DNA of 64,000 nucleotides from Candidatus Bathyarchaeota archaeon (GTDB lineage Archaea > Thermoproteota > Bathyarchaeia > Bathyarchaeales > Bathycorpusculaceae): contig OY970340.1 in the NCBI GenBank assembly GCA_963717465.1, positions 1,344,001 to 1,408,000 on the forward strand, written 5' to 3'. Position numbers and translations under genes: made by a program. Numbering within the stretch: the stretch's first letter is position 1; every line of letters begins with the position of its first letter. Under the pieces are notes generated by a model, which was not told where the DNA came from, made no database searches, and saw only the letters and a program-made list of their open reading frames with translations. Positions 2,873-56,608 of this stretch are shown here, one piece after another.

Positions 2873-3155
2873 GCAAATTAGGCTTGATTTTCAAAATTAG
2901 TTTTGCATAAGTCTCTTTAGCTACTTCTTCAGCTATTTTCTGAATTTTAGGAAAAGACGTTACGACCGCTGCATCAACAAAATCTTCTGCTCGAAGCTTA
3001 TTGTTTTTGAAGTACCTGTAGGATAATAACTTTGATATTGCGATAGATTGCCGGGTGCTGGGTATTGTTACATCTTTGCCTTGACTTTGCTCACGAAAAT
3101 TGTTGACAAATTCAACAGAAAATTGTTCGATTAATTCGTGTGCTTCTATTTGCAA
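2853..3155 (-). CDS. Small AAA-lid-like protein
   Basis: PSTRQSIAI resembles the sensor-II lid motif SVRTGISI of the adjacent AAA protein; overlaps neighbouring genes. Confidence 0.6.
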   Translation of the reverse strand: MQIEAHELIEQFSVEFVNNFREQSQGKDVTIPSTRQSIAISKLLSYRYFKNNKLRAEDFVDAAVVTSFPKIQKIAEEVAKETYAKLILKIKPNLRAGCIE

Positions 3156-4054
3156 GTTAAACTCTTCCTAATCAAGGCTTTCAGGTTAGCCTCATTCCAT
3201 CGGTTATTGCGCTCAGTTACAGACCCTAACAGGGTTTCATACGCAATATCCACGAGAACATCATCAGTTAATAGGTCCATTTCGGCGTATCTTGAAGCCA
3301 CGCGTGCAATGGATATACCAGTTCGAACCGAGACAAACTTGGAAAACTCCTCGTGCTGTCTGGACTGGTCAACTATGTTGTGAATCTTTTGCATTAATTC
3401 GTAGCTAAGTTTGTTCTCTGGAGTGTTTGCAGCGATGATTTTAAGTTCAGTTTCTTTATCTGGGTAGCTTAAGCTTATCCAAACGTGAAGTCGATCTCTT
3501 AGCGCCTCTGAGATTCGGTGAGCTCCGGAGAATTCATAGGGATTTGCCACTGCGATGAAAACAAAATTGTCGCTTGCTCGGATTTTTCCAAGATGAGGGA
3601 TATACAAGGTTTTTTCTTCAAGGGGTTCAAGGAAGCTGTTTTGGCAAAATTCTGAAGCGCGATTCAGCTCCTGCGCGACAAAGACTCCACCGCCAACCAT
3701 TGCAAGTAATAATGGTCCTGGTTCAAAAGCTTCCATACAGTAGCCTTTGTTAACAAGGACTGCAGGGTTGAATGTTCCAACAAGATGGCTTGGGCTCATT
3801 AACTCGTCAAAGAACAATTCATAAAATGGTCTTTGAGTATCGTATGCGAATTTTCTGGCAAGTAATGATTTGCCTACACCAGGTGGACCTATGATTATCG
3901 GCGTTAATTTAGCTGATACTGCGTCATCTAAGAGTTCGTAAGCTTTTTTGTATTGCCCTTCGAGCACAATTTTTATTTCTGAAGGCCTAGGCGCTAAGTG
4001 AAGAGCAAACTGTTCCCTGAACAATTCGTTAGTATCACACTGTTTTTCCGACAT
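3146..4054 (-). CDS. MoxR/CbbQ/NirQ-type AAA+ ATPase
   Basis: Walker A GPPGVGKS, FEPGPLL, QELNRA (Walker B variant), ANP, SEALRDR. Confidence 0.9.
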   Translation of the reverse strand: MSEKQCDTNELFREQFALHLAPRPSEIKIVLEGQYKKAYELLDDAVSAKLTPIIIGPPGVGKSLLARKFAYDTQRPFYELFFDELMSPSHLVGTFNPAVLVNKGYCMEAFEPGPLLLAMVGGGVFVAQELNRASEFCQNSFLEPLEEKTLYIPHLGKIRASDNFVFIAVANPYEFSGAHRISEALRDRLHVWISLSYPDKETELKIIAANTPENKLSYELMQKIHNIVDQSRQHEEFSKFVSVRTGISIARVASRYAEMDLLTDDVLVDIAYETLLGSVTERNNRWNEANLKALIRKSLTCK

Positions 4055-4074
4055 TTTCTTCTCCTCGTCTTTGT

Positions 4075-4332
4075 CTATGGATAAAGCTTCTTTTTTATGA
4101 GATAACTCTGAGCTTTTTTTAACAACTCGTTTTCGTCAATTTTGCATTTTTCTCTTTCTTGACAAGTGTCGCAGATTGACTGGTCAGTTGTGACTCCGAA
4201 AAGTCTTATTCCACTCATTGTAAGCGATTGCTCAGAGGGTATGACGCTTACGGCTATGTTGATGCCTACGCAAAGGTTTATTTCCTTGCCGTTTAAGCCA
4301 TATACTTTTCCAAGCTCTTTTATTTTCAACAT
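4075..4332 (-). CDS. Small hypothetical protein with CxxC...C motif, first gene of the MoxR operon
   Basis: ORF preceded by AGGGG RBS-like element; co-oriented with AAA operon. Confidence 0.5.
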   Translation of the reverse strand: MLKIKELGKVYGLNGKEINLCVGINIAVSVIPSEQSLTMSGIRLFGVTTDQSICDTCQEREKCKIDENELLKKAQSYLIKKKLYP

Positions 4333-4707
4333 CCCCTTGAATATAATTCGATGTTATTAAGGCAACAAAAATTGTCGCTCAACGTGATTTAAAGACTATT
4401 TAGTCTCAAAGGAGACAAACCCGTCCTTGATAGTCGTTTTTTGCTTTAATTTGAATATTGTATTAGACCTTTGAATATGATTGAAAATTACTCTATAAAA
4501 GCATATCTTGTTCTAATTTGGACAAATCAAAGTTCTTGACTAAAATTAGATGCGAGTAATTTTTCCTTTCATTTCAGCGATTTTGTCCAAAAGTCTTTAT
4601 ACCCTAAAAGTAAGTATATACACAAAGCATTAGTATGTGTAAAGCATCGGGCTCGCTTTAGTCAGTATGAGTGTATTAAATAAAGTTGAGGGGTGCGCGA
4701 CGCCTAA

Positions 4708-42477: not shown

Positions 42478-42503
42478 TGGCGGGCGGGGAGGGATTCGAA
42501 CCC
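42478..42503 (-). repeat. att site: duplicated 3' end of tRNA-Arg
   Basis: Identical to 56464-56489. Confidence 0.9.
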
Positions 42504-42813
42504 CGGCTTTGCTCGTGATTTCACTCGTAAAACTCCCTTTTTTGTGCGCAGTTGGCGAACATCAGCGGAGGCTAAAACATTTAAACATAGAATTATCAAT
42601 TGCCCACATTGCGGCAAGATCATCCCAGAGTACGTTCTCAAGGGAGAATCAAGAAAGAAATTCAGTGACCTGCCCCGAGTGCGGCAGCCAGAGGAACTGT
42701 GCGCGCTATAATGCAATTAAGCGGAGAACTGCGTCAGAGGTTTAGAATAGCTGACAGCATTGTTTCATGGATAACTTCAGGGCATCCTTGAGAGTCAAGA
42801 AGGCGATTGTAAG

Positions 42814-43566
42814 TTAAACAGTAATTTTTTCCCAATTATTCTTTGAATTTTCAAACAGTCCTTTATAATTCCCATTATGGTATTGTCCAACTATTTTTTG
42901 TCCTGACTTGCTTAGCGGTCCAGTTATTTCTTGGATGCAATAGATAGTCCTATCACCTTTGCTTTTTCCAGACCAACAGCCTATTTCATTAAAATAACTG
43001 AAATCTTCCTTTGCAAAGATATAGTAATCTGCCAATCGGACATCCTTCTGACCAACAATAACTAAAACGATATAGTCAACAGAGCTAAAGGCGCTCTTTC
43101 TTATTGTCGGCGAACTGAAACATTCAACATTCTTGACTATCTCATATCCATGCGGAAATTGAGTTTTAACTTGAATCTTTTTCCCATTCACGACTATATC
43201 AGCCTTAGGGGTTGTGCCACCTAAATAAAGAATGACAGATCGCTTCAGGTGTCTTTGGCAATTGAGCTGCTTCATAGTTAGGCACTCCCCAATTGTGCCT
43301 TTCAAGAAGACTGGAATTTGCATTCTATTTTTGCAGTATAGCTCTTGAAGATCCAAAAGTTTAGAAATTATCTCATCATAGGTTTCATCTCTCCGCGTCT
43401 CTTCAAATAATCGGGTGATACTTTTCTCAGTGACCCTTATGGTATGTCCTCTATTTTTTAGGTCTAATTTCCCTCTGGAGATCAGTGACCGAACTATTCC
43501 TGTGTCACTGAGTTTGAGATTTAGTCGTTGAGCAGTTTCGTTGATTGTGTATACTCTTTCCTGCAT
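42814..43566 (-). CDS. Excisionase-like HTH fused to PD-(D/E)XK-like nuclease domain
   Basis: YTINETAQRL...LISRGKL N-terminus; GTIGE...ADIVVNGKKIQVKT. Confidence 0.65.
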   Translation of the reverse strand: MQERVYTINETAQRLNLKLSDTGIVRSLISRGKLDLKNRGHTIRVTEKSITRLFEETRRDETYDEIISKLLDLQELYCKNRMQIPVFLKGTIGECLTMKQLNCQRHLKRSVILYLGGTTPKADIVVNGKKIQVKTQFPHGYEIVKNVECFSSPTIRKSAFSSVDYIVLVIVGQKDVRLADYYIFAKEDFSYFNEIGCWSGKSKGDRTIYCIQEITGPLSKSGQKIVGQYHNGNYKGLFENSKNNWEKITV

Positions 43567-43675
43567 ACCGGTAATTCTCTTGTAGGTTGGATATCTAGTT
43601 TAGCCCTGTCCAACCTTAAGACAGCATAATTCTTTTAAGTGGTTCCTTATCACTTGGTTGTAGAGGAAGCGAGCG

Positions 43676-44353
43676 ATGCTTAAGTATAGCCAACTAGTTC
43701 TTGGTTCCAAAGCTTTTGTTGAGAATGAAAAACGCGATGCCATGTATAGAGTTTCGACCTATCTTATCAACGAATTCTGGGGAAAGCCGGAAGACATCGC
43801 TGATGCTTTAGGAGTCTTGCTTTTAACCTGGAACCAAGCGTTTTATAGATATGGTGGCTTTGACTCTGATGATTTAGAGAGTTGCCTCAAAAAGAATTCA
43901 GCGCTCATTCAGCAATACAGAAATCGAGATATTTTCACTTATGCTCCAAACGATGATAGCCCAATTAGCAAGCTTTTTAATGAAATGCTGATCGCCCTAA
44001 AGACTGATAGGGGAAAAAGTCCTGTGGCAGTCGCAAAAGCACTGCATCTTTTGGCTCCAAATTTCTTTCCCCTATGGGATGCTAAGATTGCAGAAAATGG
44101 ATACGATTGTTATTGGGGCGCTGGCTCTTCGGCGGCAGCACAGAAATATTTGTGCTTAATGAAGAAGACCCAGGTACAAGTAGAAGATATAGTCAAAAGT
44201 TATAGTGAGTTTGGTGTATTGCCTTTGGATGAAAAGCGAGCTACCTTAGTAGATATATGCAAAAGCTGTTCAAACAACCTACCCTTTCAAAAGTCCATCC
44301 TTAAAATAATTGATGAGCATAACTACGCTAAATACACTAAAGGGTGGATTTAA
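43676..44353 (+). CDS. Hypothetical protein with HhH/DNA-glycosylase-like motif
   Basis: LLTWN, SPVAVAKALHLLAPNFFPLWD..IA. Confidence 0.55.
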   Translation: MLKYSQLVLGSKAFVENEKRDAMYRVSTYLINEFWGKPEDIADALGVLLLTWNQAFYRYGGFDSDDLESCLKKNSALIQQYRNRDIFTYAPNDDSPISKLFNEMLIALKTDRGKSPVAVAKALHLLAPNFFPLWDAKIAENGYDCYWGAGSSAAAQKYLCLMKKTQVQVEDIVKSYSEFGVLPLDEKRATLVDICKSCSNNLPFQKSILKIIDEHNYAKYTKGWI

Positions 44354-44423
44354 TCAATAGCGATCGTGGAACATGCTCGATACATTAAAGTCGAAAAATT
44401 TAAGTTCTTGAAAAAAAAACAAA

Positions 44424-44695
44424 TTAGGTATTACACCAAGAACCAGTTGAATAAGAATAAGGCTTGGGATTCGGTTCTAAATAAACATCGGTTAATATCA
44501 AAGCGAACAAAGTTTTCTTTCCGCCTGCATACTCATCGATAAGTCGTTAGCCTGTTGCGATTCGGCTTTCTTGGTTTTGGTGTTTCCGAGCGCTATTGTG
44601 CCTCTGAAGTTCGTAGTTGTTCGTCTAATTTCCCAGGTCTTTTTTCCTTCCAATATTAGCCTAATCCACTTATCGTCGATCTTTAAGCACTTCAA
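44424..44695 (-). pseudogene. ASCH domain protein, frameshifted/degenerate
   Basis: WIRLILEGKKTWEIR..TNFRG.IAL; continues in another frame (EYAGGKKTLFALIL...GSW). Confidence 0.65.
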
Positions 44696-45021
44696 GGTAT
44701 CTCGCCCTTGCTTGCGGTGATCTCGATTTCAAGCTTTATGGGCGTCTTGTCGAACCTTCCTTGAAGGGTCACATTGAACTCCTGTGCAAGTAGAGATGTC
44801 ACCCGCAATTCCCCTTTTTTGTCAAGATACTCATCGGAGCAACTTCTCAATGGTTCCTTCCTGAAGAGTGCAACCTGATAAAATCAAGATGTGCCCATTC
44901 TGGTGCGCAGAGAGAGCGTATTTATGGATTATATCGATCAATATCTGCCACTGGGTGCGCGGAAGATCGAATGGGTTTTTAGATCAGTTAAAGCTTTTAA
45001 ATTTATCAAAGCAATTCTATT

Positions 45022-46449
45022 GTGTGGTATAGAATGTACATTCGAAACTTGGAACTCAGGAACATAATGTGTTTTGAAGAGGCAGGGTTGAGTTTCACAA
45101 ACCAAAATGGCGAAATAATAAAATGGACCGTAATTCTTGGAGAAAACGGATTTGGAAAGAGCACAATTCTGAAAAATATTGCTCTGTTGCTTGCAGGACA
45201 AGATGCAGCAAGGGAATTACAGCATGAACCCCGCCGTATGGTTAGATTCGGCTGCAAAGAGGCAATTGCTGAAGCAGAAATTGACATGGGAAAAGCCTGT
45301 CCTCAACCAAGAAAAAGATTGAGGTTATCTCTTAATTACGTCGATAAACCCTACGCTGAAGGTTGGGGTGATACTCTCGCAAAGGTGGATCCTAGCAGAG
45401 CGAATTTTGAAGGTTGCCTCAAAGAATGCAGGCGAAGTTTTTTTGTTTGCGGTTATGGAGCAACACGCGTAGTACCACATGAAAAAGATACCAAACGAAT
45501 TCATGCCCTGGAACGCAGAAGCCCTTTTTTTGAAAGGCTTGAGACTCTTTTCATTGATGATTCTCCATTAATGCCTGTTGATGATTGGCTAAGAACGCTC
45601 GAATATAACACGTTAAGAACCAATAAGGCAAGTTCTGCGAAAAACCGGTTTAAAAGTGCAACAGATCTGTTATCCAAGCTTCTCCCTTCTGTGCAGTTTA
45701 AGGAAATTAACGATAACGGCGAAGCTATTTTCAATACGCCTTATGGCGAAGTTTCACTGTCCGAGCTTTCAAGAGGATATCAAGACGTGTTGTCTTGGGT
45801 GTCCGATCTTGCAAGACGTTTGATAGATGCTTTTCCTGATAGCTCTCAACCTCTTGCAGAAGAAGGAATTGTGCTTATCGAAGAAATTTCTCTGCATCTT
45901 CATCCTATTTGGCAAAGAAAAGTAATCGGCTTTTTGCGTAGTCATTTCCCAAATATTCAGTTTATTGCAACAACGCATTCTCCTCTTGTTGCTCAAGCAC
46001 TCCAACGCAACGAATTTGTTGTGTTACAATGTGGACGAAGAAACCGAAGTCATCAAGATACAATTAGAATAACAAGATTAGATCTGGAGCCGAGAGGGTT
46101 GAGTGCGGATCAAATCCTCACGAGTCCGCTCTTTGGTCTTTCATCTTCAAGGTCTGTCGGAAACGAAAGAATAGAGAGCGAGCTTTTCTCACTGAAAAAA
46201 CTTATCAGTAGCGGCGAATCGTCCGAAGACCAGAAGAAACGATATACAGAACTCCTAACGCTTTATGAGAAACAACCAGAAGCACCTGGGACGTCTTATG
46301 ATCAGTATAGACTCTTTCTTAAGCTAAACAAGACTCTTGAGTCATTGGGCAGGACAGATCTGCTTGATTTGCCTCCGTTGAAGTCTCTTGAAGAAAAAAC
46401 CAAAAAGGAAGAAGCCAAAGAAAAGGCAGAGGAAAAGAGCAAGAATTGA
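45022..46449 (+). CDS. AAA_21/ABC-type ATPase (PtuA-like)
   Basis: GENGFGKS, GYGATR, LSRGYQ, LIEEISLHLHP.WQR, QFIATTHSP. Confidence 0.88.
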   Translation: MWYRMYIRNLELRNIMCFEEAGLSFTNQNGEIIKWTVILGENGFGKSTILKNIALLLAGQDAARELQHEPRRMVRFGCKEAIAEAEIDMGKACPQPRKRLRLSLNYVDKPYAEGWGDTLAKVDPSRANFEGCLKECRRSFFVCGYGATRVVPHEKDTKRIHALERRSPFFERLETLFIDDSPLMPVDDWLRTLEYNTLRTNKASSAKNRFKSATDLLSKLLPSVQFKEINDNGEAIFNTPYGEVSLSELSRGYQDVLSWVSDLARRLIDAFPDSSQPLAEEGIVLIEEISLHLHPIWQRKVIGFLRSHFPNIQFIATTHSPLVAQALQRNEFVVLQCGRRNRSHQDTIRITRLDLEPRGLSADQILTSPLFGLSSSRSVGNERIESELFSLKKLISSGESSEDQKKRYTELLTLYEKQPEAPGTSYDQYRLFLKLNKTLESLGRTDLLDLPPLKSLEEKTKKEEAKEKAEEKSKN

Positions 46450-47189
46450 TCCGTTATAACCGAAATGGGAATGGAGCAACCCCTCCTGCCCATCTTGTTA
46501 ACTCAAAAAGGATGAGGCAAAACACTGCAAAATTGGAGAAAGAATACACTCTAGCCATAGCCGAAAGCAGGAATATGAAATTTGAGAAAGGAGTTTATGG
46601 AAGTTCTTCTGTCAAAGCTCAACTTATAATTATTAGCTATGGCAAATGTTCATATTGTGATAGTCATGTCGTAGGCGTCGCGTATGGCGATGTCGAGCAC
46701 TTTAGGCCTAAAGCTCATTATTGGTGGCTTGCATACACATGGGAAAACCTCTTGTTCTCATGCCAAATATGCAATCAAGAATATAAGAGAACGAATTTCC
46801 CAGTTGTAGGGAGTAGAGCGAACAAACCGACGGCAGATTTGACTTTGGAACAGCACTTATTGATTAATCCATTGGACGAGGATCCAGAACAACTTATTGC
46901 TTATGATTTTAAGGGAGATGAAGCAAAGATTATAGAGCAAAATTTGCAAGTGAAAGATCGGGTCGATGCATGCAAGAAGTATTTAGGACTAAATCGTGAG
47001 GATTTGCTTCATAGAAGGCGCGGAGTTCTTAGAATTTTAAAAGTATGGTATGCATTTTACCAAGATCCAAGAACCACAACCGGTATAAAGGATGAAATTC
47101 TTTCGGAGATGATTGCAATGGCAAACAATGATTCACAATACGCTGGCATGGTACGCTATTATTTAAGACATTGGGGCTTAATACCTTAG
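46446..47189 (+). CDS. HNH endonuclease (PtuB/TIGR02646-like)
   Basis: KCSYCD, VEHFRPK, YWWLAYTWENLLFSCQICN, LLINP..EDP; 4-bp overlap with the ATPase. Confidence 0.88.
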   Translation: MIRYNRNGNGATPPAHLVNSKRMRQNTAKLEKEYTLAIAESRNMKFEKGVYGSSSVKAQLIIISYGKCSYCDSHVVGVAYGDVEHFRPKAHYWWLAYTWENLLFSCQICNQEYKRTNFPVVGSRANKPTADLTLEQHLLINPLDEDPEQLIAYDFKGDEAKIIEQNLQVKDRVDACKKYLGLNREDLLHRRRGVLRILKVWYAFYQDPRTTTGIKDEILSEMIAMANNDSQYAGMVRYYLRHWGLIP

Positions 47190-47491
47190 CGACGAGGAGC
47201 GTGCTCTAATCGCACCTTCCATATCGAAATAACGTGCGCGTTAAATTGGTCTAAAATGGTTAAAAGTCTCATTTTGCAAAGCTAATCCAAAAATGAAGTG
47301 CGTTAATTGTGGATGTCTGCATAGATAATGGTTGGTTTTTTTGAATTCCTAGGACTATTGCCTACGTTAGGCGTTCCATTTGCAAAGGAAACTGATAAGC
47401 TGAAAATACTGAATAAAAAGCTAAAAAAGTGCAATTTAACCTCTGAATGTAAAAAAAGGAATAAAAACCATTTTTAAACATTTTAGGAACA

Positions 47492-47622
47492 GAGACTGTT
47501 TGAAAAGTCAAAAACATTTCTGAAAATTGCGTCTTTCATGTTTAAAAATACCCAGCTAACACTTAATTTTTCAGACAAACAGTGCAACTTTTCAAAGCAA
47601 AAAATATTTTTCACACAGTCTC
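47492..47622. mobile_element. 131-bp MITE/IS remnant with 15-bp TIRs and 4-bp target-site duplication
   Basis: GAGACTGTTTGAAAA ... TTTTCACACAGTCTC (14/15 match), flanked both sides by AACA. Confidence 0.75.
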
Positions 47623-47831
47623 AACAGCCATGCGCGCTAGTTTCAAGTTTGCCTAGTTAATTAAAAGCAAAACTCAAACTAATAGAAGTAGCTTTCTTTC
47701 TAATGATTTTAATATGAAGTGCTTCGAATAATGAAAAGCGTTTAATAGTTAATCGGTGGATATGGACACAATCGATAGATGAGGGACCAAAAATAATAAA
47801 CATTAATTCAGTTCTTTCACGCTATTCGAGA

Positions 47832-49478
47832 GTGGAACAAAGAGAATACCAAAAAGCTTGTATCAAAGATATAGTGAATGCATTGAATGATAGTTCTGAT
47901 GCGTTAATTGCCCTTCCAACAGGCACAGGAAAGACCGTTGTTTTCAGTCCTGTAGTTGCAGAAAGCAGAGAAAACAATTCAAGGACGCTAGTTCTTGGTG
48001 CCACAAAACAAGCGCAAAGCCGAATTGAGCGTGAAATAAAGCGCTTCCTGTCTTCAGGAGATACGAAACTTGTTTTTGGTGTCGAAGAATACGATTGCCC
48101 TTTGTTAAAAAGCAAGGCTGAAAGTTGGTATTGTAGGGAAAATAAGGTTGAATGCAAAAAATTGAATATATCCTGCGCGGTCATTCAATCTGAAAAAGAT
48201 TATCATGATAAACCACTTGTGATCACTAATTTCTCCAAGTTTCTTTTAGCTCAAGGAGGTGGTAGTTATGATTTTATTGTGCTGGACGATTCACATAGCT
48301 TTGAGAATGCAAAGGAACAAGCCTACCAGCTGACTATTCAGGCTGCCGATGGCAATAGCCTATACGAAAAGGGAATAAGCAACGATAAGATCAAGGCATT
48401 TGTTGAAGATTTTTTAAATATTTTCGCACAGGCATTTGAGCGTTGCTTAAATCCGAGCGACAAGGATGGAGTTGGAGTCGTCAGTCCTGATTATATTGCA
48501 CATTTCGCATCGCTCTCAACCAAGCATGATTCAGAAAAACTAAAAAAAGAAATCGGAGGGATGCTTGCAGGCAAAGATCGCAAGGTTTGCTTGAATATGT
48601 ACTATTTCGTTATGCATTGCACTAAAGCAAGCAGATACGAGTTTTTTGTAAGAAGCGACTTCTATAATCGCGAGTGGATAGATAGCGAGCTAATTTCTAG
48701 GCAAGTCGAAGTGGATTATCTTATAAAAAGTAAGTTTGGAAATAGCGCGATCATATATGCAACTGCAACTCCAGGTGACGCATTCAAACACGCGAATTCT
48801 TGCTCGTTACGTAATTATGATGATTCAAATTTGAAAATAACACCGATAGAGAAATTCGAGCAGGTTGAGAACTGGTTTAAAAATCTAAATATCTTGGTTG
48901 TGACGGATATCGGTGATACAAGAGAAACTGGTCCGTTTGATTCAGCACTTAATCTCACGACTGAAATACTCACAAAGAGAAATGAACGCTCATTAATTTT
49001 ATTTAAAAACTATAGGGATCAAAGGAAAGCTAACGAACGCTTGAAGGGTCTTTTTTCTCCTAATCGACTATTCTTCTTAGATTCAACAATAGATAATAGC
49101 GATTTCGTTGAAAATCTAGCTAGCAAAAGTCAAATATCTCTTGCTTCAGCTTCATCCACGTTATGGGAGGGAATAAACATTCAAAGTCTAAGAATTGCTA
49201 TCATAACTACAGCACCTTTTATTCGACCTATCGCGGGCAAAAAAATGAATTATCCTGATCTTGAGCGCAGAATGCTTATACGACTACAGCAAGGTATTGG
49301 TAGAATAATAAGAAGCGAATCTGATTTTGGTGTATCGATTTTAATGGATAGTCGGTTTCAAGGGTACGTCAAGAAAAAATACTTTGACAAACGTCTTCTC
49401 AATAGGACCAAGTTTGTTACAGCTGATCAAGTTATGCCAATAATCACCGAAGTACTTGAAAAAGGAGCTAAAGAATAA
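47832..49478 (+). CDS. SF2 helicase, DinG/XPD-like, with putative Fe-S cysteines
   Basis: Q-motif REYQ, Walker A PTGTGKT, DDSH, TAT, LWEGINI, QQGIGRIIRSESDFG...MDSRF; Cys cluster YDCP..WYC..EC..SC. Confidence 0.88.
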   Translation: MEQREYQKACIKDIVNALNDSSDALIALPTGTGKTVVFSPVVAESRENNSRTLVLGATKQAQSRIEREIKRFLSSGDTKLVFGVEEYDCPLLKSKAESWYCRENKVECKKLNISCAVIQSEKDYHDKPLVITNFSKFLLAQGGGSYDFIVLDDSHSFENAKEQAYQLTIQAADGNSLYEKGISNDKIKAFVEDFLNIFAQAFERCLNPSDKDGVGVVSPDYIAHFASLSTKHDSEKLKKEIGGMLAGKDRKVCLNMYYFVMHCTKASRYEFFVRSDFYNREWIDSELISRQVEVDYLIKSKFGNSAIIYATATPGDAFKHANSCSLRNYDDSNLKITPIEKFEQVENWFKNLNILVVTDIGDTRETGPFDSALNLTTEILTKRNERSLILFKNYRDQRKANERLKGLFSPNRLFFLDSTIDNSDFVENLASKSQISLASASSTLWEGINIQSLRIAIITTAPFIRPIAGKKMNYPDLERRMLIRLQQGIGRIIRSESDFGVSILMDSRFQGYVKKKYFDKRLLNRTKFVTADQVMPIITEVLEKGAKE

Positions 49479-51757
49479 TGTATCACGCAAATGCTTTTCC
49501 CCTTCTTAAAAGTGACGGATTGCCAGTTTTTGTTTATGCAACTGCTATAGAGCCCAAACCAGTCAACAATCCACAATACTATCAAATCTTAGGAGTTATT
49601 GCAAAAAAAATTATGTTTGAACAATGTATCCCCGTAGTCTCAATCGATGGTTATATTCAAAGCCTCCCCGATCGAATAAGCAGTTCTTTAGTTTATGACG
49701 TTGATATTCCAAATATTGGGAAGTTTAAAGTTAAGTTGGCTGAGATGAGCAAATCAATTGTCGGCATTGACGATTTCGAAAACTATTCTCATCTTGTATG
49801 CCGCTTAGCTGACATAGCACTAACCGTTTATTCAGATCAATATTACAAGTTTCACCCTAAAGCGCCATTTATTATAAGAGATGAACCTTATTTTGACTTA
49901 GATCTAATAGGCAAGACGGGGATAATCGACTCCAAGAGTTACTATAGAGGTTTATTTCAAATAAGCAATAAGCCAGTTTTTGTTTTGAACAGAGAAACTC
50001 AACTTAGATCAAACAAGAACTTGCTTGTTGAAATGAAAAGTCTGGCTAAATCTTTTGAGGAGAAAAATCAAGGGAAGAACATTGACTTTTATGATCCCCC
50101 TTCAGAGTTCATGGGCTACGTTAATAATTTGATTCGAGAAAAGGCGGCTGACATAGCAAGGTCAAGTTATCCAGGTCCGAAAGTGGAAAAAATTGAAGCG
50201 GTCACTTGGAAATTTAGGGCAGGTGAAAAAACACCAGGAGCAGAAGGAACGCCAATTGATTACTTGCACAATACATATGGAATCAATGGTTTAGACCCTC
50301 GACAACCGCTTGTTGTTTACACTGTGCAAGGAAGAACACAGTATCATATTCCTGAAGTTCTCTCTTTAGGGCACACGTTTGAGGATTTAGCAAAAAGAAT
50401 TCCAGAGTGGCAAAGAAGCCAGGTCTGGGGAGATATTCATCCGGATTGCAAAAATCAACTGCACAAAATCTATGAGGTTCTTTTAGAAATCGATTCGACG
50501 CTGCGGAAGTGCCTGCCTGAAGTTTATCCCAAGTTTGTTGAAATATCAAGGGACCCATTAGACATCTCTAACGATGTCTCCGAACCTAATGAAATAGGTA
50601 TTCAGTTCGCGGATAAGGCAATAAAAATAAAGCCACCATACGATCTCAGTTTTTATCGAAACTATTCTGGAAAGAAGAATTTGTTTGCAAGAGTAATCCC
50701 TAACTCCAAGATATTGGTTTGTTCCGACAGGGTTAATTCTAAGATTAAGAAGTTCTTGGCCAAGTTAGCAGCTGAGTATAAAATAAGAAACGGTTCTGAC
50801 ATTACTTACGATTTCGGACCGCTTGATCCACTTAAGAATAAATTTGCAAATTATCAAATAGTTTTAACCATTAGTACCGAGTCGCAAGACGATGAGAAAT
50901 TATATACTTGGTATAAGAAAACCTTACAAAATGAAATGGGCATACCTCATCAGCATATTACTGTAGAAAATGCCGATGATAATTCTGTTATGCAAATAGT
51001 CATGCAAATATGTCTGAAGTTGGGTGGCGATCCTTGGCTACTGCCTGAGATGTTAAATATTGATTGCGTTTTTGGAATTAATAGTTATTTGAACCCTCAG
51101 ACAGCAAGAGCAGAGATTTCAATGCTCTTAACTGATGCCGCGGGAAAACTAATAACTCAATTAGACCCTATCGATTGTTCAAACGCAGATAGAATCATTG
51201 AAACTATTAAAGAATTGGCTGGCAAATATCGAAGAGTTCTTTTTCTAACAACGTTTGATAGGTCAGGTTTAATTGATAAGATAAAAACATCGTTAGATAT
51301 TTTGGCAAGCGAGTATTGTATTGTCACAGTTATTGATAACAACTATTTTCGATTTTTCGAAACATATTCCCCTCGACATGCGCCGAGATTTGGCAAGACA
51401 GTTTTGGAAGTAGCTAAATGCTCTATCGAAGCTATTGAAAATGCACCTCAAGGTCACATCTTTAAGTGCCAACCAGACATCTACTACTTGCTTACCGGAA
51501 AGACAATTGAAAAAGGTCTGTCTAAACGAGGGTGCCCTTTACCGATAAAAATCGAAATAAAATGTGTAAAAGGACAAAATTGGGACAAAATGGAACTTGC
51601 CAAATATATTATGGCGTTGTGCATGATGGGAAGAGCAAGTGGCCATATGACAAGGTTTCCGATGCCCCTCTATTATCTTCAGCTTAGCGAATACTACTAC
51701 AACAGGTTCGGAGTCCCTAAGGATGCAAAACTCAAGAAATCAATTTTCTACATCTAG
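49478..51757 (+). CDS. Long (N-L1-PAZ-L2-MID-PIWI) Argonaute, predicted slicer-inactive
   Basis: PAZ: DYLHNTYGI..LDPRQPLV..YHIPEVL; MID: Y...K..IPHQ...QICLKLGG.PW; PIWI: VFGINSY, GCPLPIKI, LAKYIMAL, TRFPMPLYY, C-terminal IFYI. Confidence 0.88.
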   Translation: MYHANAFPLLKSDGLPVFVYATAIEPKPVNNPQYYQILGVIAKKIMFEQCIPVVSIDGYIQSLPDRISSSLVYDVDIPNIGKFKVKLAEMSKSIVGIDDFENYSHLVCRLADIALTVYSDQYYKFHPKAPFIIRDEPYFDLDLIGKTGIIDSKSYYRGLFQISNKPVFVLNRETQLRSNKNLLVEMKSLAKSFEEKNQGKNIDFYDPPSEFMGYVNNLIREKAADIARSSYPGPKVEKIEAVTWKFRAGEKTPGAEGTPIDYLHNTYGINGLDPRQPLVVYTVQGRTQYHIPEVLSLGHTFEDLAKRIPEWQRSQVWGDIHPDCKNQLHKIYEVLLEIDSTLRKCLPEVYPKFVEISRDPLDISNDVSEPNEIGIQFADKAIKIKPPYDLSFYRNYSGKKNLFARVIPNSKILVCSDRVNSKIKKFLAKLAAEYKIRNGSDITYDFGPLDPLKNKFANYQIVLTISTESQDDEKLYTWYKKTLQNEMGIPHQHITVENADDNSVMQIVMQICLKLGGDPWLLPEMLNIDCVFGINSYLNPQTARAEISMLLTDAAGKLITQLDPIDCSNADRIIETIKELAGKYRRVLFLTTFDRSGLIDKIKTSLDILASEYCIVTVIDNNYFRFFETYSPRHAPRFGKTVLEVAKCSIEAIENAPQGHIFKCQPDIYYLLTGKTIEKGLSKRGCPLPIKIEIKCVKGQNWDKMELAKYIMALCMMGRASGHMTRFPMPLYYLQLSEYYYNRFGVPKDAKLKKSIFYI

Positions 51758-53096
51758 TATTTCTAATTTTAAACAATGGTTAACGGAATTAGAGCGGTGT
51801 TCCAAGAAGTACCAAAAATATGGGTCCTTAAAACCGACACAAGTACAACTACTTGAGCAGGTATTCACGAATATAATTTCAAATAAGTACAAGGTTGTTA
51901 GCTATACCGCTCCTCCTTCATCAGGAAAGACCCATGTTATAGCTCTTTGTTCCTCTTACTTGTGTAAAAATGGGTTTGATACATGCATAGTTACGCCAAA
52001 CGGCGAATTAAAGTCCGATTTCGCCAAAGAAATGCTGGAAGTAGATGTAGGAATTAAACTTTCAATTCCAATCGAATCCATAAGCAGTTACCGCAAGAAA
52101 AAAGAGAATTTTGACTACGTATTTGTTGATGAAGCTCACAATCTTCGTTCATCGATAGAAATAGACGAATCTATAGTTAAAACCTTCCATTTTGAAGAAG
52201 GCGAAGAGCTTTTTGATTTCGTGACTTCAGGAGTTGACCAGAAGAATTATGTTGTTAGGGAGTTAGGGATAGAAAGCTCTTCAGAAATATTACATAAAAT
52301 GTTAGAGATCGAACCTTTTAAAAAAGACGCAAGAAATCTCCTTAGGAAGCTCACTCAATGGAGGGCTTTCTACATTGGATATCAAAAATCTTGCAGTCTA
52401 AGGTTCCTTTTAGTCGATCCTCAAAAAAGGAGCATATTACCAAAAGGCAGATTGTTCTTGTTTTCAGCAACACGATTGGAAGAGAGAGAACTTACATTTT
52501 ATTGTAATATTCCTCCTGATTGTCTCATAACAATCGGAGAAAAAAAGACCCGCTTTGTTCCAAAAGAGAATATTCATTACAGCTTCTTGCATCTAGAAAA
52601 TAATGATGCGAAGATTGCAGCTTCTTTCGCATTATTAAATATGGCTAGAGTGCGAACACTAATTTTGCTTAATAACAATTGCAATTGTTTATTATGGAAA
52701 AATGCGCTTAATAAGAAATTTGCCGATAGACTGACAGTTGTGCAGTCAGGTTTAACATATTTAGAAAGAATGAAGGCTTTTAAAACGTTTGATGAAGGTG
52801 ACGCAAAAATACTCGTAACCTCTTCAAATGTTTACTGGGAAGGCATAACGATAAAGAATTTGAAATTACTTATTATTCCATATAATCCATTTCCCCAACC
52901 GTCAATTATTGAACTATCCGAGCGAAAAAACCCTGATTACCAAAAAATAGCAAACAGGCGTTTGGTCCAAGGCATAGGTCGCATTGGCAGGAAACCTGAA
53001 GAAACAGGTCTATGCGTTTTGCTTTTCCGTCCATCGAAAATGTTTCGATACGTTAAAGAAAGCACTTTAATAGAGCTTCTAAAGTTGTATTTGTGA
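51723..53096 (+). CDS. Second SF2 (DEAH) helicase with Helicase_C_2-like C-terminus
   Basis: LKPTQ, APPSSGKT, VDEAHN, FSAT, YWEGITI, VQGIGRIGR. Confidence 0.85.
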   Translation: MQNSRNQFSTSSISNFKQWLTELERCSKKYQKYGSLKPTQVQLLEQVFTNIISNKYKVVSYTAPPSSGKTHVIALCSSYLCKNGFDTCIVTPNGELKSDFAKEMLEVDVGIKLSIPIESISSYRKKKENFDYVFVDEAHNLRSSIEIDESIVKTFHFEEGEELFDFVTSGVDQKNYVVRELGIESSSEILHKMLEIEPFKKDARNLLRKLTQWRAFYIGYQKSCSLRFLLVDPQKRSILPKGRLFLFSATRLEERELTFYCNIPPDCLITIGEKKTRFVPKENIHYSFLHLENNDAKIAASFALLNMARVRTLILLNNNCNCLLWKNALNKKFADRLTVVQSGLTYLERMKAFKTFDEGDAKILVTSSNVYWEGITIKNLKLLIIPYNPFPQPSIIELSERKNPDYQKIANRRLVQGIGRIGRKPEETGLCVLLFRPSKMFRYVKESTLIELLKLYL

Positions 53097-53313
53097 CTTT
53101 TCAAGCATTTAGCGAATAACAGCGCTCTACTATATGCTTGAAAGGTGTATTACCAATTTCTGTTTGAAGAAACGATTAATAGAACAAACATGAACACAGC
53201 GACTGCCAATGTTTCCCATTTTATTGAGACATTTTCAAGCCACAGAATTCCAGTTAAAAGCATGAATATTACGCAAAGAATTGCAAAAAGCGTATTTAAA
53301 TTGTTTCTTCTCA

Positions 53314-54387
53314 TCATTTTAATAGCTTCCGTTTCTCAAAATCCTTGGTTCCTTCGTAGCATGCTTTTCTCTTTATATAGTGGTCTACTGAACAGTTGGA
53401 ATAACTGACACAAGCGTCAATATTTTCCATTAGTGGTGTTATCTTTAAAATCTTATTTTTAATATAGTTGTTAAGATCAGTCTTGCTAGCATTGGGCAAA
53501 TAATTGATGAAATCGCGGAAAGCCCAATAATAACGTATAAAATTTATTTCATCCAATGCGAGGTTTTCTATATCGCGTTCATGCCATTTGAGGATGTGTG
53601 GCTCAATTGTTTTGTTTTTTACTTCCTTCTTGACTGCCCTGATAAGTTCGCGAACGTGTCTTTGCAGTGTGCTCATGTGCATGACTTTGACTCCCGTGAA
53701 AAGGCTGATATTCTTCTTTATTTTTTTCTTGAATTCTGGGACAAGTAGGATTAACTGATCTTGTAGGAAATATGAAAGCAGAGGTAAGAATACATTATCC
53801 CTTGTCTCTCCGAATAGATTAGATTGGGCATTATAATATCCCGCCTTATCATGCAAGGTTACACTACTATCCTGAACCATCGAAAGTGGATGAACAACGG
53901 TGTCTGAATTCAATTTGACTATAGTTGGGAAATCATCGTAATAATTTCCGCTTAATAAAATGGGACAGTTCTCTTTGTAGTGCCCGAGCAGTAAAACGCC
54001 AAGTTTATTGTTTTTTTGCACTTGTTCATACAAACCTGCAAGAAAATACGTATTGAGCTTCTCAAAAGGATAATCAAATCCACCTTTGAATGACAAAACG
54101 AGTGAGCACTCCGAGTTTTTTTTCTCGTGCTCGATTTTTGCTTTAAACATGTCGACATAGTCTTCGCCAGCTTCACTTAAAATTTTAACAATATCGAGTC
54201 CATTGAGTTCTTGAGGCAAGTGAATTACGGTCTCTACTAAAGAAGATGTATCCTCTTTAAAACTGGTTCTAACAGTGAAAGCTTTCTCAACCTCTAGAAT
54301 GTATTCGTCATCAGTGATTTTTTTCCATCCAAATCTATCCGTAAACTCACGGATCATTTTGTCCAAATTATTAATCATATTAATCAC
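53314..54387 (-). CDS. Hypothetical protein (island cargo)
   Basis: 357-aa open frame, no motif recognised. Confidence 0.6.
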   Translation of the reverse strand: MINMINNLDKMIREFTDRFGWKKITDDEYILEVEKAFTVRTSFKEDTSSLVETVIHLPQELNGLDIVKILSEAGEDYVDMFKAKIEHEKKNSECSLVLSFKGGFDYPFEKLNTYFLAGLYEQVQKNNKLGVLLLGHYKENCPILLSGNYYDDFPTIVKLNSDTVVHPLSMVQDSSVTLHDKAGYYNAQSNLFGETRDNVFLPLLSYFLQDQLILLVPEFKKKIKKNISLFTGVKVMHMSTLQRHVRELIRAVKKEVKNKTIEPHILKWHERDIENLALDEINFIRYYWAFRDFINYLPNASKTDLNNYIKNKILKITPLMENIDACVSYSNCSVDHYIKRKACYEGTKDFEKRKLLK

Positions 54388-54799
54388 AAATTAAACATAA
54401 TTTGCGCTCCAATATTTAATAATTTCGTAAGGCAATAATCAAATTGAATGCTAGACAATACGTATGAAAAATGGCTTAAAAGAGTATCGCGTCAGCCCAT
54501 GCGCGATGCAACTGGCGCAGCACCTACTGAAAGCCAATTCACCGGGATTTCTCCGATTTTCGCCACGTTCGTCCTGCTGGGATGCTCACCAGCGATACGA
54601 TCGTCCGTGCCGAAATCCGTTCGGCATATCCATTTTTTCTTTCGCCTGTAGGACTTGCAGGACAAGGTTTTGGTTAATGTTTTCCTTCCGACCCTTTCTG
54701 AAACAAAGGTCAAAAAGTGTGCCTCGCAGGTCTCACAAATGAACGACTTTTGCAGCCGTGTTGGCCTCGGCTACGTAAGTTGTCAGCTGGTACCGCTTG

Positions 54800-55125
54800 G
54801 TCAATTGCTAGGGGCTTTGTGCAGGAGAGGCTTTCGCTACCGGATCCATTATGACGGAGACAGGACTGACATAGCCTTCCCAAGCAAAAAGGTGGCAGTA
54901 TTCATAGATGGCTGCTTTTGGCATGAGTGCCCCATTCACTCCCATCAACCAAAGTCAAACCGAGCTTATTGGCTGCCAAAATTGAAAAAGAATATTCAAG
55001 AGACACTCCAACAAATGAGCGATTAAACGCTGAAGGGAGAGTAGTTTGCGATTTTGGGAGCATGAGATAGATGATATAGATTGCATTGTTAACAGAATTG
55101 CGGCTGCACTAAATTCAAATTGAAT
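54800..55125 (+). pseudogene. vsr: Vsr very-short-patch repair endonuclease remnant
   Basis: GFRYR, DIAFP.KKVAVFIDGCFWH.CP, PKSN..YW.PK; RFWEHE in a shifted frame; N-terminus missing. Confidence 0.8.
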
Positions 55126-55316
55126 TATTGCTCTGCGCTTTCTATTAGGAGACGCTTGTTTTCTACATCGATTTTGACTTTGACTTTCTGGTTTGGCTTG
55201 AAGGGGAAGGCCGAATCGTTTGACACCTGCCTCGGAATGTAAACATAAAACTTGTCGTACATCTTCCTGCCCGTCTGCGTGGGTCTGTTTACCAGCTTTG
55301 ATTCTGATTCCAACAT
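55125..55316 (-). CDS. AbrB/SpoVT-like small DNA-binding protein
   Basis: FYVYIP..V..DS.FPFKP.QKVKVKID. Confidence 0.65.
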   Translation of the reverse strand: MLESESKLVNRPTQTGRKMYDKFYVYIPRQVSNDSAFPFKPNQKVKVKIDVENKRLLIESAEQ

Positions 55317-55631
55317 CGTGAATCCTAAATTGGTGTAGCGGCTTGTTCCCCATAAGTGGCTTTTAAGATACCAAAATAGGAAACAATTTGATATACCAAA
55401 ATGGTAGATTTTATTAAGCGAGGTAGCGATTAAAAAAGCGTGAAAGGGGGAGGTAGAATGGATCTAAAAACAGAAAGCGGCAAAACCACGCGTAAGGGTA
55501 TGGCGCTGATTTCCCGAATCATTTTTATGCTTTTGGGCATTGGCACCATTGCAGCTCTTGTCTCAACTGTCACGCTTAATTTGTTAAACCCAAATTACTT
55601 ACATTTCACTAACGGCGCCACCTAGGCTCAA

Positions 55632-55910
55632 TTGGCAGCTCGCAGCTTTTCCTTTTCCGCATTTCTGGCATTTCTTGCAGTAGATGATATTGCGATGCTT
55701 TCGTGGTCAATAAGGCAGGTTCTATTGCGTCGGGGACCGATTTCACGGCCTATTTTTGCGGCTTTAATAATATTTGCATCCATCTTTTTTGTTCTTGCTC
55801 AGATTGAAACCACTGTTTTAGTCGCGGTCAGTTCCATTATTCTTTTGGCGCTTGACGTGATAGCGGTGCTCCTTTGGGCGCTCCTCTGGTTCGTGCGCAA
55901 ATACGCCTGA
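55632..55910 (+). CDS. Small membrane protein (possibly continuous with 55440-55625)
   Basis: Three hydrophobic segments. Confidence 0.4.
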   Translation: MAARSFSFSAFLAFLAVDDIAMLSWSIRQVLLRRGPISRPIFAALIIFASIFFVLAQIETTVLVAVSSIILLALDVIAVLLWALLWFVRKYA

Positions 55911-56087
55911 TGCCCCCGCAATGTACGCTGTATTTGGGCATGAAGGCCTTCAATTTTCTGGGGGGTATAAAGGGAAAGGCCTTCACGATTTTAACTAATC
56001 ATTAGAACATATAAAATACAATAAATAAACTGCAAGTTGACTTATTCTACAGCATCCAACCGGCGACAGGCCTTTGCCCTATAACTT

Positions 56088-56351
56088 TCAATGTCTATAG
56101 TGTTTGTAGGCAAAGTCGCGGCATGCGGCATTGCCCGGATCGACATGCTTGATTTTCTTTTTGCAGTAATTCCTGCGGGAGGCAACCAACAGCTTCTTCA
56201 TCGGCGACCCACGTGCTGGAGGTTCATGCGCCTTGTTTTCAGCGACAAAATGCTTGCAGTCTCCGCACGCGTTATCTTGCCACCTTGGCCCAAGAGCGTG
56301 GTCTCTTTCTCGTGCTTTATCTCTAAGTGTATCCCGACTCAAGACGAACAT
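56088..56351 (-). CDS. Small Cys-rich hypothetical protein
   Basis: CGDCKHF...YC......AACRDF pattern. Confidence 0.4.
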   Translation of the reverse strand: MFVLSRDTLRDKARERDHALGPRWQDNACGDCKHFVAENKAHEPPARGSPMKKLLVASRRNYCKKKIKHVDPGNAACRDFAYKHYRH

Positions 56352-56463
56352 ACCTCTGAACTATGGGACCGAAAGTTAGCGCGGCGCGCCTTTCCATTAG
56401 AATTTGGGAAAATAATGGATTCATGTCTATGTATACACTGCGTACACAAACAGTTATGTTTTT

Positions 56464-56608
56464 TGGCGGGCGGGGAGGGATTCGAACCCTCGACCCCCAA
56501 CTTAGGAGGCTGGTGCTCTGTCCGTAAATCCTACAAAACAAACCTCGACCACCACAAATCTGGAAGAGGAGGCAAAGGAGGATTTAATCCGTGCTGAGCT
56601 ACTCGCCC
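56464..56608 (-). tRNA. tRNA-Arg(CCT) with a 67-nt insertion in the D-loop; possibly degenerate
   Basis: GGGCGAG/CCCGCCC acceptor (one mismatch), GCTC/GAGC D stem, CCAGC-CTCCTAA-GTTGG, GAGGG-TTCGAAT-CCCTC, encoded CCA. Confidence 0.75.

Follow-up and report, generated by a model that had tools for sequence, protein, structure and literature searches.

A 64,000-nucleotide (nt) stretch of the genome of a Candidatus Bathyarchaeota archaeon (assembly GCA_963717465.1, contig OY970340.1, positions 1,344,001 to 1,408,000; hereafter "the window") carries an operon that encodes a helicase (Hel1), a full-length Argonaute predicted to be slicer-dead (Ago) and a second helicase (Hel2). The Hel1-Ago-Hel2 module is real, conserved and apparently undescribed, and adds to the systems in which an inactive Argonaute is paired with a partner. 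As the best explanation of the data, and one that we give about an even chance of being right, we propose that it is an island-borne interference module in which a guide directs helicases, and no nuclease, to invading DNA. The known signalling partners of inactive Argonautes are NADases, nucleases, membrane toxins and, in DdmDE, a helicase-nuclease. An operon in which helicases are the sole partners would add a further output, namely targeted unwinding or motor-driven clearance. Such an output has been proposed for the CasDinG of type IV-A CRISPR; here it would be based on an Argonaute.

The three genes occupy 5.3 kb (Table 1) and are physically interlocked. At the first junction, within the motif TAATG (49476-49480), one A is common to the stop codon of Hel1 and the start codon of Ago; at the second, the ATG of Hel2 at 51723 precedes the Ago stop codon TAG (51755-51757), generating a 35-nt gene overlap. 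An earlier reading of the window, made from the sequence alone (the sequence-only reading), had described three co-oriented, overlapping genes, and the open reading frames (ORFs) and both junctions were recovered exactly where that reading had placed them. No nuclease domain was found in Hel1, Ago or Hel2 using Pfam and NCBIfam. The AT-rich intergenic stretch that precedes the operon presumably contains its promoter and leader. A scan of this upstream region for sigma-70 promoters was discarded as not meaningful for an archaeon.

To determine how far this arrangement extends beyond the window, we compared 34 related loci, scoring for Hel1 those with at least 1 kb of room. The Ago family comprises 44 proteins of about 760 aa that share 37-76% identity, with named members from Bathyarchaeia and from one Thaumarchaeota metagenome-assembled genome; when a library of 1.84 billion representatives was searched, scores above 770 bits were obtained for the full-length members and a score of 120 bits for the next protein, P0069. 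This comparison revealed that Hel1 lies directly upstream of Ago at all 31 loci with room, at Ago identities that span the whole 37-76% range, and that Hel2 lies downstream of Ago at 25 of 30 loci, the remaining five being the most divergent group. Homologues elsewhere are therefore linked to the same helicases, as the proposal of a helicase-Argonaute-helicase system demands. The core unit is Hel1 plus Ago, with Hel2 missing from one subclade.

The spacing of the genes is similarly constrained. In 24 of 26 distinct loci, Ago starts between -4 and +20 nt from the Hel1 stop, and in 22 of 22, Hel2 starts between -35 and +17 nt from the Ago stop. One of the exceptions at the first junction (L032) has only a partial Hel1 match, covering residues 1-338. 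At the other (L016, 5350-6999), the Hel1 frame is interrupted by a stop codon at precisely the Q62 position, which is invariant in the other sequences; either a nonsense mutation or an error in sequencing could account for this. At a further locus (L034, 951-1223) we noted a lone 90-aa ORF that matches just the start of the PIWI domain, with no helicase nearby, and that is probably a decayed remnant.

The family is also patchily distributed. Of 401 genomes of the class, three contain Ago, as does one of 39 other genomes from the genus, and strong Hel1 matches among the same 401 genomes were confined to the three with Ago and to one fragment at a contig end. Across the 22 loci scanned for neighbours, the flanking genes vary: no conserved fourth gene was seen, and no nuclease gene is conserved beside the operon. 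The suggestion in the sequence-only reading that targets might be handed off to island nucleases accordingly finds no counterpart among these 22 loci. Defence or mobile neighbours occur at about 11 of the 22 (a raw count) and include restriction-modification, TIR, Mrr, Cas1, SNF2, UvrD with an SMC-like ATPase, and transposases. As part of our best explanation, and held with the same even balance of belief and doubt, we regard the module as an accessory one that has spread horizontally among Bathyarchaeia and Nitrososphaeria.

For the Argonaute itself, Pfam returned Piwi (1.3e-5) and PAZ (0.019), both under the gathering score, and the PADLOC models for prokaryotic Argonautes (pAgos) matched at 1.7e-25. 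An AlphaFold 2 model generated from 33 relatives had a predicted local distance difference test (pLDDT) score of 88.6 and a predicted template modelling (TM) score of 0.86. Searched with Foldseek, this model matched MILI with an E of 2.6e-35 and a TM of about 0.7 over its full length, and structural superimposition using VIA-align gave a Z of 32.4 to HILI over 678 residues, 31.2 to HrAgo1, 31.2 to human AGO2 and 32.1 to the MID-PIWI part of AfAgo. Model and fold matches together identify the N-L1-PAZ-L2-MID-PIWI architecture of long-form Argonautes, and hence the PIWI fold that had been predicted for this 759-aa protein.

We then used hidden Markov model (HMM) alignments to place the functional residues of the family. 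The pocket of the MID domain that binds the guide 5'-phosphate aligns with the PIWI Y-K-Q-K positions and is well kept among 33 family sequences (Y476 in 29, K480 in 33, Q492 in 33 and K514 in 31), extending to the family what had been noted for the window protein. For the catalytic tetrad, positions were assigned by HMM alignment to the PIWI motifs "GxDVYHD" and "YAH". The first position (N535, in GINSY) is His in 15, Tyr in 10 and Asn in 8 of the 33 sequences and Asp in none; the last (Q735) is Gln in 15, His in 8, Arg in 6 and Lys in 4; and no conserved acidic residue was seen between the first and second positions in the family alignment. The DEDX tetrad of slicer Argonautes is thus incomplete in the family, in keeping with the degenerate tetrad (GINSY, YYLQ) first read from the window. 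The accompanying claim that there is no RDG motif is literally correct, but a conserved Asp, D594 in the motif FDR, is kept in 32 of 33 sequences and is located after the strand equivalent to the RDG strand, raising the possibility that it is the second catalytic Asp. Since the pocket is kept and the first catalytic Asp is lost, Ago should be a guide binder that does not slice.

Hel1 was identified as an XPD/DinG-family helicase by several routes. It matches Pfam Helicase_C_2 at 6e-16 and the PADLOC type IV-A-associated DinG model at 6e-28. PADLOC typeIV_DinG (PDLC01439) is the best defence-library match of Hel1 in 24 of 24 members (best value 9e-39), and PADLOC PprDinG is matched in 5 of 24 (best 6e-4). 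A structural model of Hel1 (pLDDT 86.5) matched the archaeal XPD TaXPD in Foldseek at 2.2e-20 and SaXPD with a TM of 0.68, with a whole-length match to DinG as well; CasDinG structures were matched at a TM of 0.65-0.69 (0.69 for the type IV-A1 CasDinG 8rfj_K), and DdmD structures ranked 44-47, at a TM of 0.41-0.44. All 24 orthologues keep four cysteines (C89, C101, C108 and C115), which form a putative iron-sulphur (Fe-S)-type cluster site, and they also share invariant PTGxGKT (Walker A) and QQGIGRxIR (motif VI) sequences and a conserved Q motif; Hel1 in addition has an Arch-like insertion. Of the hallmarks of the XPD/DinG (Rad3) family, Hel1 therefore has the Cys-rich region and the whole-length fold and lacks the DEAH of motif II, where D152-D153-S154-H155 (DDSH) is invariant, again in 24 of 24. 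The original description of Hel1 as a DinG/XPD-like helicase with Fe-S-type cysteines, and of Hel2 as a second, DEAH helicase, agrees with these data, Hel2 having a canonical Walker A (SGKTH) and DEAH. When the two helicases were aligned to each other using hhalign, they matched over the whole core (probability 99.8, E 4e-28), with a gap in place of the Cys-rich Fe-S segment that Hel1 has; Hel2 is therefore a Fe-S-less paralogue of Hel1. A sequence search of Hel2 against solved chains gave no match at E up to 0.01.

During this analysis, we also noted that conserved N-terminal residues of Hel1 extend upstream to about position 47802 (47802-47831), before the first canonical start, and that this extension has no in-frame ATG, GTG or TTG after the preceding stop. 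The same situation was found at a related locus (L001, 6348-6398), where use of the first canonical start would remove the Q motif. It is possible that translation of Hel1 begins at a non-canonical start codon.

Taken with genomic context, patchy distribution and analogy to known systems, these features suggest a role in defence that would operate through the recruitment of helicases. In the scheme that we favour, Ago would bind a 5'-phosphorylated small guide, as the conserved Y-K-Q-K pocket suggests, and the guide would pair with a complementary strand of the invader, either as single-stranded DNA (ssDNA) or within an R-loop opened by replication or transcription. With the first catalytic Asp missing across the family, Ago would not slice, and target-bound Ago would load or activate Hel1, its translationally coupled partner, for which the helicase family points to a 5'-to-3' polarity. 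In most members the DEAH paralogue Hel2 would be engaged as well. The motors would then move from the marked site, unwinding DNA or stripping polymerases, and in this way might block replication or expression of the element or expose it to host nucleases. With its invariant DDSH, Hel1 may be a slow or regulated ATPase, in which case Hel2 might be the main motor. In its logic such a scheme would parallel the CasDinG of type IV-A CRISPR and the DdmD of DdmDE, but the present operon encodes no nuclease domain.

Structure prediction of a complex between Hel1 and residues 400-759 of Ago gave a score of 0.35, compared with 0.02 for the best control. Of 157 solved complexes, 116 reach the mark used for such scores, as do 2 of 215 mismatched pairs, with just 18 of those 157 and both of the mismatched pairs passing at scores of 0.60 or below. 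At least 84% of the contacts were common to the runs, and the pLDDT of the partner was at least 83. This provides weak support for an association of Hel1 with Ago.

Several observations weigh against the recruitment scheme. With DDSH in motif II, Hel1 lacks the catalytic Glu and may not act as an ordinary motor, and because five loci have no Hel2, a two-motor model is not general. The complex prediction passed only weakly, and passes of this sort are wrong more often than they are right if the guess was not a likely one beforehand; it also took in only the MID-PIWI half of Ago. About half of the 22 related loci scanned lie among housekeeping genes. A search for longer proteins returned no fused Ago-helicase forms, which is itself weak evidence. 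In addition, the PIWI domain contains a further set of invariant residues (E651, R684, C686, R719, S721, G722 and H723), and these, together with D594, could form an unforeseen function.

A dead PIWI domain with obligatory partners is also characteristic of long-B and short systems (PMC10620215), and this, together with the defence-island context of the operon, is consistent with abortive infection. Under such a model, target recognition by the dead Ago would trigger toxic helicase activity, in which Hel1 and Hel2 would hydrolyse ATP without restraint, or would unwind DNA or block replication throughout the genome, and growth of the infected cell would cease. However, helicases of the XPD/DinG type require a site at which to load, and are better suited to targeted action. 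Moreover, the effectors described so far are NADases, nucleases and membrane proteins, and we know of no helicase-only toxic effector; we consider abortive infection unlikely.

To our knowledge, pAgos are unable to open duplex DNA alone, which would be in line with a helper function for the helicases. They would open double-stranded DNA or R-loops so that Ago can bind, and may aid the making or loading of guides, with silencing the result of stable Ago binding, as in RsAgo, or of unlinked host nucleases. Helicases are reported as commonly enriched in pAgo operons (PMC6299218), and the HrAgo1 locus combines an Ago with an RNase III and a helicase, a pairing proposed to serve guide biogenesis (PMC11217426). 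On the other hand, no guide-producing nuclease is conserved in the operon, and the strict one-to-one coupling through overlapping genes suggests a stoichiometric effector complex. We therefore rate a helper function as rather unlikely, and keep to the recruitment of helicases as effectors.

We next asked how the module relates to systems already described. When the operon was run through PADLOC, matches were obtained to single-protein models only, and we found no published description of a Hel1-Ago-Hel2 operon, although supplements of pAgo surveys may list these proteins. Ryazansky et al. treat helicases in pAgo operons in general terms (PMC6299218). The triad is, in this sense, uncatalogued, as the sequence-only reading had supposed. 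Its further statement that the operon matches no known system needs to be narrowed: the core is Hel1-Ago, and a gene order with dinG upstream of a PIWI gene has a precedent in the design of pPIWI-RE. The module resembles pPIWI-RE, type IV-A CRISPR with CasDinG, and DdmDE, and appears to be a member of none of them.

The closest known design is that of pPIWI-RE (Ppr), which consists of a restriction endonuclease (REase), DinG and PIWI-RE, and in which the dinG gene comes immediately before the PIWI gene and overlaps it (Burroughs et al. 2013, PMC3702460; PsPIWI-RE, PMC10991935). Both systems thus have a gene for a Fe-S DinG-type helicase upstream of, and overlapping, a gene of the PIWI family. 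Furthermore, many pPIWI-RE members lack catalytic residues, and a guide-directed, helicase-assisted mechanism has been predicted for them. Of the Ago family members, 30 of 33 gave weak matches to the PADLOC PprPIWI model (best 4.3e-25), but the match covers only Ago residues 76-535 and not the part that bears the R and E residues. There are several other differences. The 22 loci have no REase or PD-(D/E)XK gene in common, and none lies upstream in the window, so that of the three-gene order REase-DinG-PIWI-RE only the DinG-like gene followed by the PIWI gene is seen; the module has a second, Fe-S-less helicase downstream; Hel1 barely matches PprDinG; and Ago, unlike pPIWI-RE as described in PMC10991935, has canonical N and PAZ domains and matches generic pAgo/PIWI models. 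Finally, pPIWI-RE is described as bacterial, whereas Hel1-Ago-Hel2 is archaeal.

Type IV-A CRISPR-Cas, with its helicase CasDinG (Csf4), similarly couples a nuclease-less guide complex to an XPD/DinG-family helicase. There, however, the guide is carried by a Cas7/Cas5/Cas8-like complex and here by an Argonaute; no cas genes or array were seen in the operon; and Hel1 has Fe-S-type cysteines and DDSH. In DdmDE, a plasmid defence system of Vibrio cholerae, an inactive Argonaute-like sensor hands its target to an SF2 helicase, but in DdmD, which has about 1,130-1,170 residues, the helicase is fused to a nuclease, whereas Hel1 and Hel2, at 548 and 457 aa, have no nuclease domain, and DdmE belongs to what we take to be a different Ago lineage from the Hel1-linked Ago. 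The long-B pAgo systems BPAN, BPAS and BPAM share with our module a full-length inactive Ago and an obligatory partner, but the partners are nucleases, SIR2 or membrane effectors that act via abortive infection (PMC10620215), and the solved sequences nearest to our Ago profile belong to the PIWI clade and not to bacterial pAgos. The HrAgo1 locus of an Asgard archaeon likewise contains an archaeal, long, PIWI-affine Ago flanked by a helicase gene; HrAgo1 is, however, an active slicer found with RNase III and a DExD/H helicase (PMC11217426), whereas the present family is slicer-dead and is found with XPD/DinG-type helicases.

The affinity of the Ago family for PIWI proteins emerged from profile searches. 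When the family profile was compared with all solved chains, matches at E <0.01 were confined to the eukaryotic PIWI clade (HILI at 1.2e-10, EfPiwi at 2.9e-10 and the Piwil2 PAZ at 4e-4), and neither a full-length AGO-clade chain nor HrAgo1 nor a classical pAgo appeared among the matches at E up to 10. Among 60 remote library matches that were scanned (18 further ones being left out, and "eukaryotic" being a label taken from Pfam architecture alone), nearly all had strong Piwi and PAZ domains and 15 had Pfam Piwi_N. P0069 and another protein, P0079, represent a rare sister group of six proteins at the depth searched, Argonautes of about 775-785 aa with a PIWI-like motif of the "GLDVYHD" type and altered second positions (RHG, REG). 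These two sister proteins matched Siwi (6e-20) and EfPiwi (4.6e-28), and also HrAgo1 (3.7e-12, for P0069), AGO2 (about 1e-4) and TtAgo (0.66).

Phylogenetic analysis gave a less uniform picture. A careful tree of the MID-PIWI region (45 rows) separated the family, its sisters and eukaryote-like rows from 12 other pAgos with a support of 94/89, in an analysis from which, as in all our trees, AGO-clade, HrAgo1 and bacterial long-A/long-B references were left out. A quick tree of 65 rows yielded a polytomy with a very long family stem, and in an approximately unbiased (AU) test a clade of family and sisters was not rejected (p 0.48), with its inner order not settled. By structural ranking, PIWI, AGO, HrAgo1 and AfAgo all fall at Z 31-32, with no separation between them. 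We regard the PIWI-clade affinity as suggestive, a lead and not a result.

The same data could point to a PIWI-like RNA pathway, an archaeal counterpart of the eukaryotic PIWI-helicase partnerships, in which RNA guides would act on RNA or nascent transcripts and the helicases would remodel RNA-protein or RNA-DNA complexes. The restriction of the profile matches to eukaryotic PIWI-clade chains, the matches of P0069 and P0079 to Siwi and EfPiwi and the grouping on one side of the 94/89 branch all favour such a pathway, as does the action of DinG on R-loops (PMC3702460). These arguments are weakened by the choice of references in the tree, whose key nodes are not strongly supported, and by structural Z-scores that fail to tell PIWI, AGO, HrAgo1 and AfAgo apart. 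Furthermore, XPD/DinG helicases are DNA translocases, and we consider an RNA pathway very unlikely. A broader proposal, which we regard as improbable, is that the family and P0069/P0079 form a Thermoproteota PIWI-clade-like lineage, relatives of the eukaryotic PIWI stem, that has lost slicing and silences invaders purely via dedicated XPD-type helicases. If true, this would amount to a nuclease-free, guide-directed "unwinding immunity" and would provide a prokaryotic precedent for PIWI-helicase partnerships. If the PIWI-clade affinity itself holds, it would bear on the origin of eukaryotic PIWI proteins, for which one Asgard protein, HrAgo1, has been put forward so far (PMC11217426).

Table 1. 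Coordinates within the window of the operon genes and of the features that surround them
Feature	Coordinates	Strand	Description
Hel1	47832-49478	+	548 aa from the first canonical start, GTG; XPD/DinG-family SF2 helicase
Ago	49478-51757	+	759 aa; full-length Argonaute (N-L1-PAZ-L2-MID-PIWI), predicted slicer-dead
Hel2	51723-53096	+	457 aa; SF2 helicase, Hel1 paralogue without the Fe-S region
Upstream intergenic stretch	47190-47831		640 nt, AT-rich, between Septu ptuB and Hel1
Septu PtuA	45022-46449		475 aa; match 1.8e-88
Septu PtuB	46446-47189		247 aa; match 2.1e-53, Pfam HNH
tRNA-Arg gene with intron-like insert	56464-56608	-	right repeat copy is its 3' end
Island	42478-56489		about 14 kb; carries Septu and the operon, bounded by a perfect 26-nt direct repeat

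The operon is located on a genomic island (Table 1). A repeat search identified a 26-nt sequence present in two perfect direct copies, at 42478-42503 and 56464-56489, the reverse complement of which reads as a T-arm, an acceptor strand and CCA; the left copy is a tRNA fragment only. Default ARAGORN, and Rfam at the gathering score, listed no tRNA in the 64-kb window. With its intron option, ARAGORN called a tRNA-Arg on the unspliced stretch 56464-56608, and after in-silico removal of an internal piece of 64-76 nt it called tRNA-Arg(CCT) in 207 of 640 trial deletions. The insert, of about 64-76 nt, is positioned outside the anticodon loop, and the gene was missed by the default tRNA runs. The tRNA-targeted island of the sequence-only reading was thus recovered in the form of a repeat that is the 3' end of this gene. 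The ends of the island thus look like att-like sites at a tRNA gene. The G+C content dips slightly inside it (0.36-0.38, compared with 0.40-0.43 in the flanks). No integrase was recognised among the island ORFs using Pfam and PHROGs, and a search of the flanking DNA against 41 genomes of the genus for the borders of the island gave just short or non-syntenic matches.

This setting bears on whether the module might instead help the host to repair or replicate its DNA or to resolve R-loops, and play no part in conflict with mobile elements. XPD and DinG are themselves repair helicases, deletion of PIWI-RE in Pseudomonas stutzeri altered ciprofloxacin sensitivity and cell division (PMC10991935), and some of the related loci are flanked by housekeeping genes. 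Against such a role, just three of the 401 class genomes, and one of the 39 others from the genus, have the family, and the copy in the window lies on an att-bounded island together with Septu. In addition, the decayed fragment at L034 and the copy with a nonsense codon at L016 fit dispensability. We find a purely housekeeping role hardly credible, and return to interference by recruited helicases as the reading we prefer.

The Septu system is complete, with a PtuA ATPase and a PtuB HNH protein whose genes overlap by 4 nt, and lies directly upstream of the operon, of which it is not a part. Downstream of the operon, the island encodes a 357-aa ORF (53314-54387), with no counterpart at L001 or L003, and a Vsr-type mismatch endonuclease (54655-55026; Pfam Vsr 2.6e-9, PHROG endonuclease 3e-16), beside which no cytosine methylase gene was seen. 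At L003, a pair consisting of a C5 methylase and a Vsr protein (2900-4532) is found just upstream of the operon. Beyond the island, the left flank (20000-40800) codes for ordinary metabolism, including corrinoid-binding proteins, a URO-D-like methyltransferase, a thermosome subunit, TrmB regulators and an ABC transporter of the iron-siderophore type.

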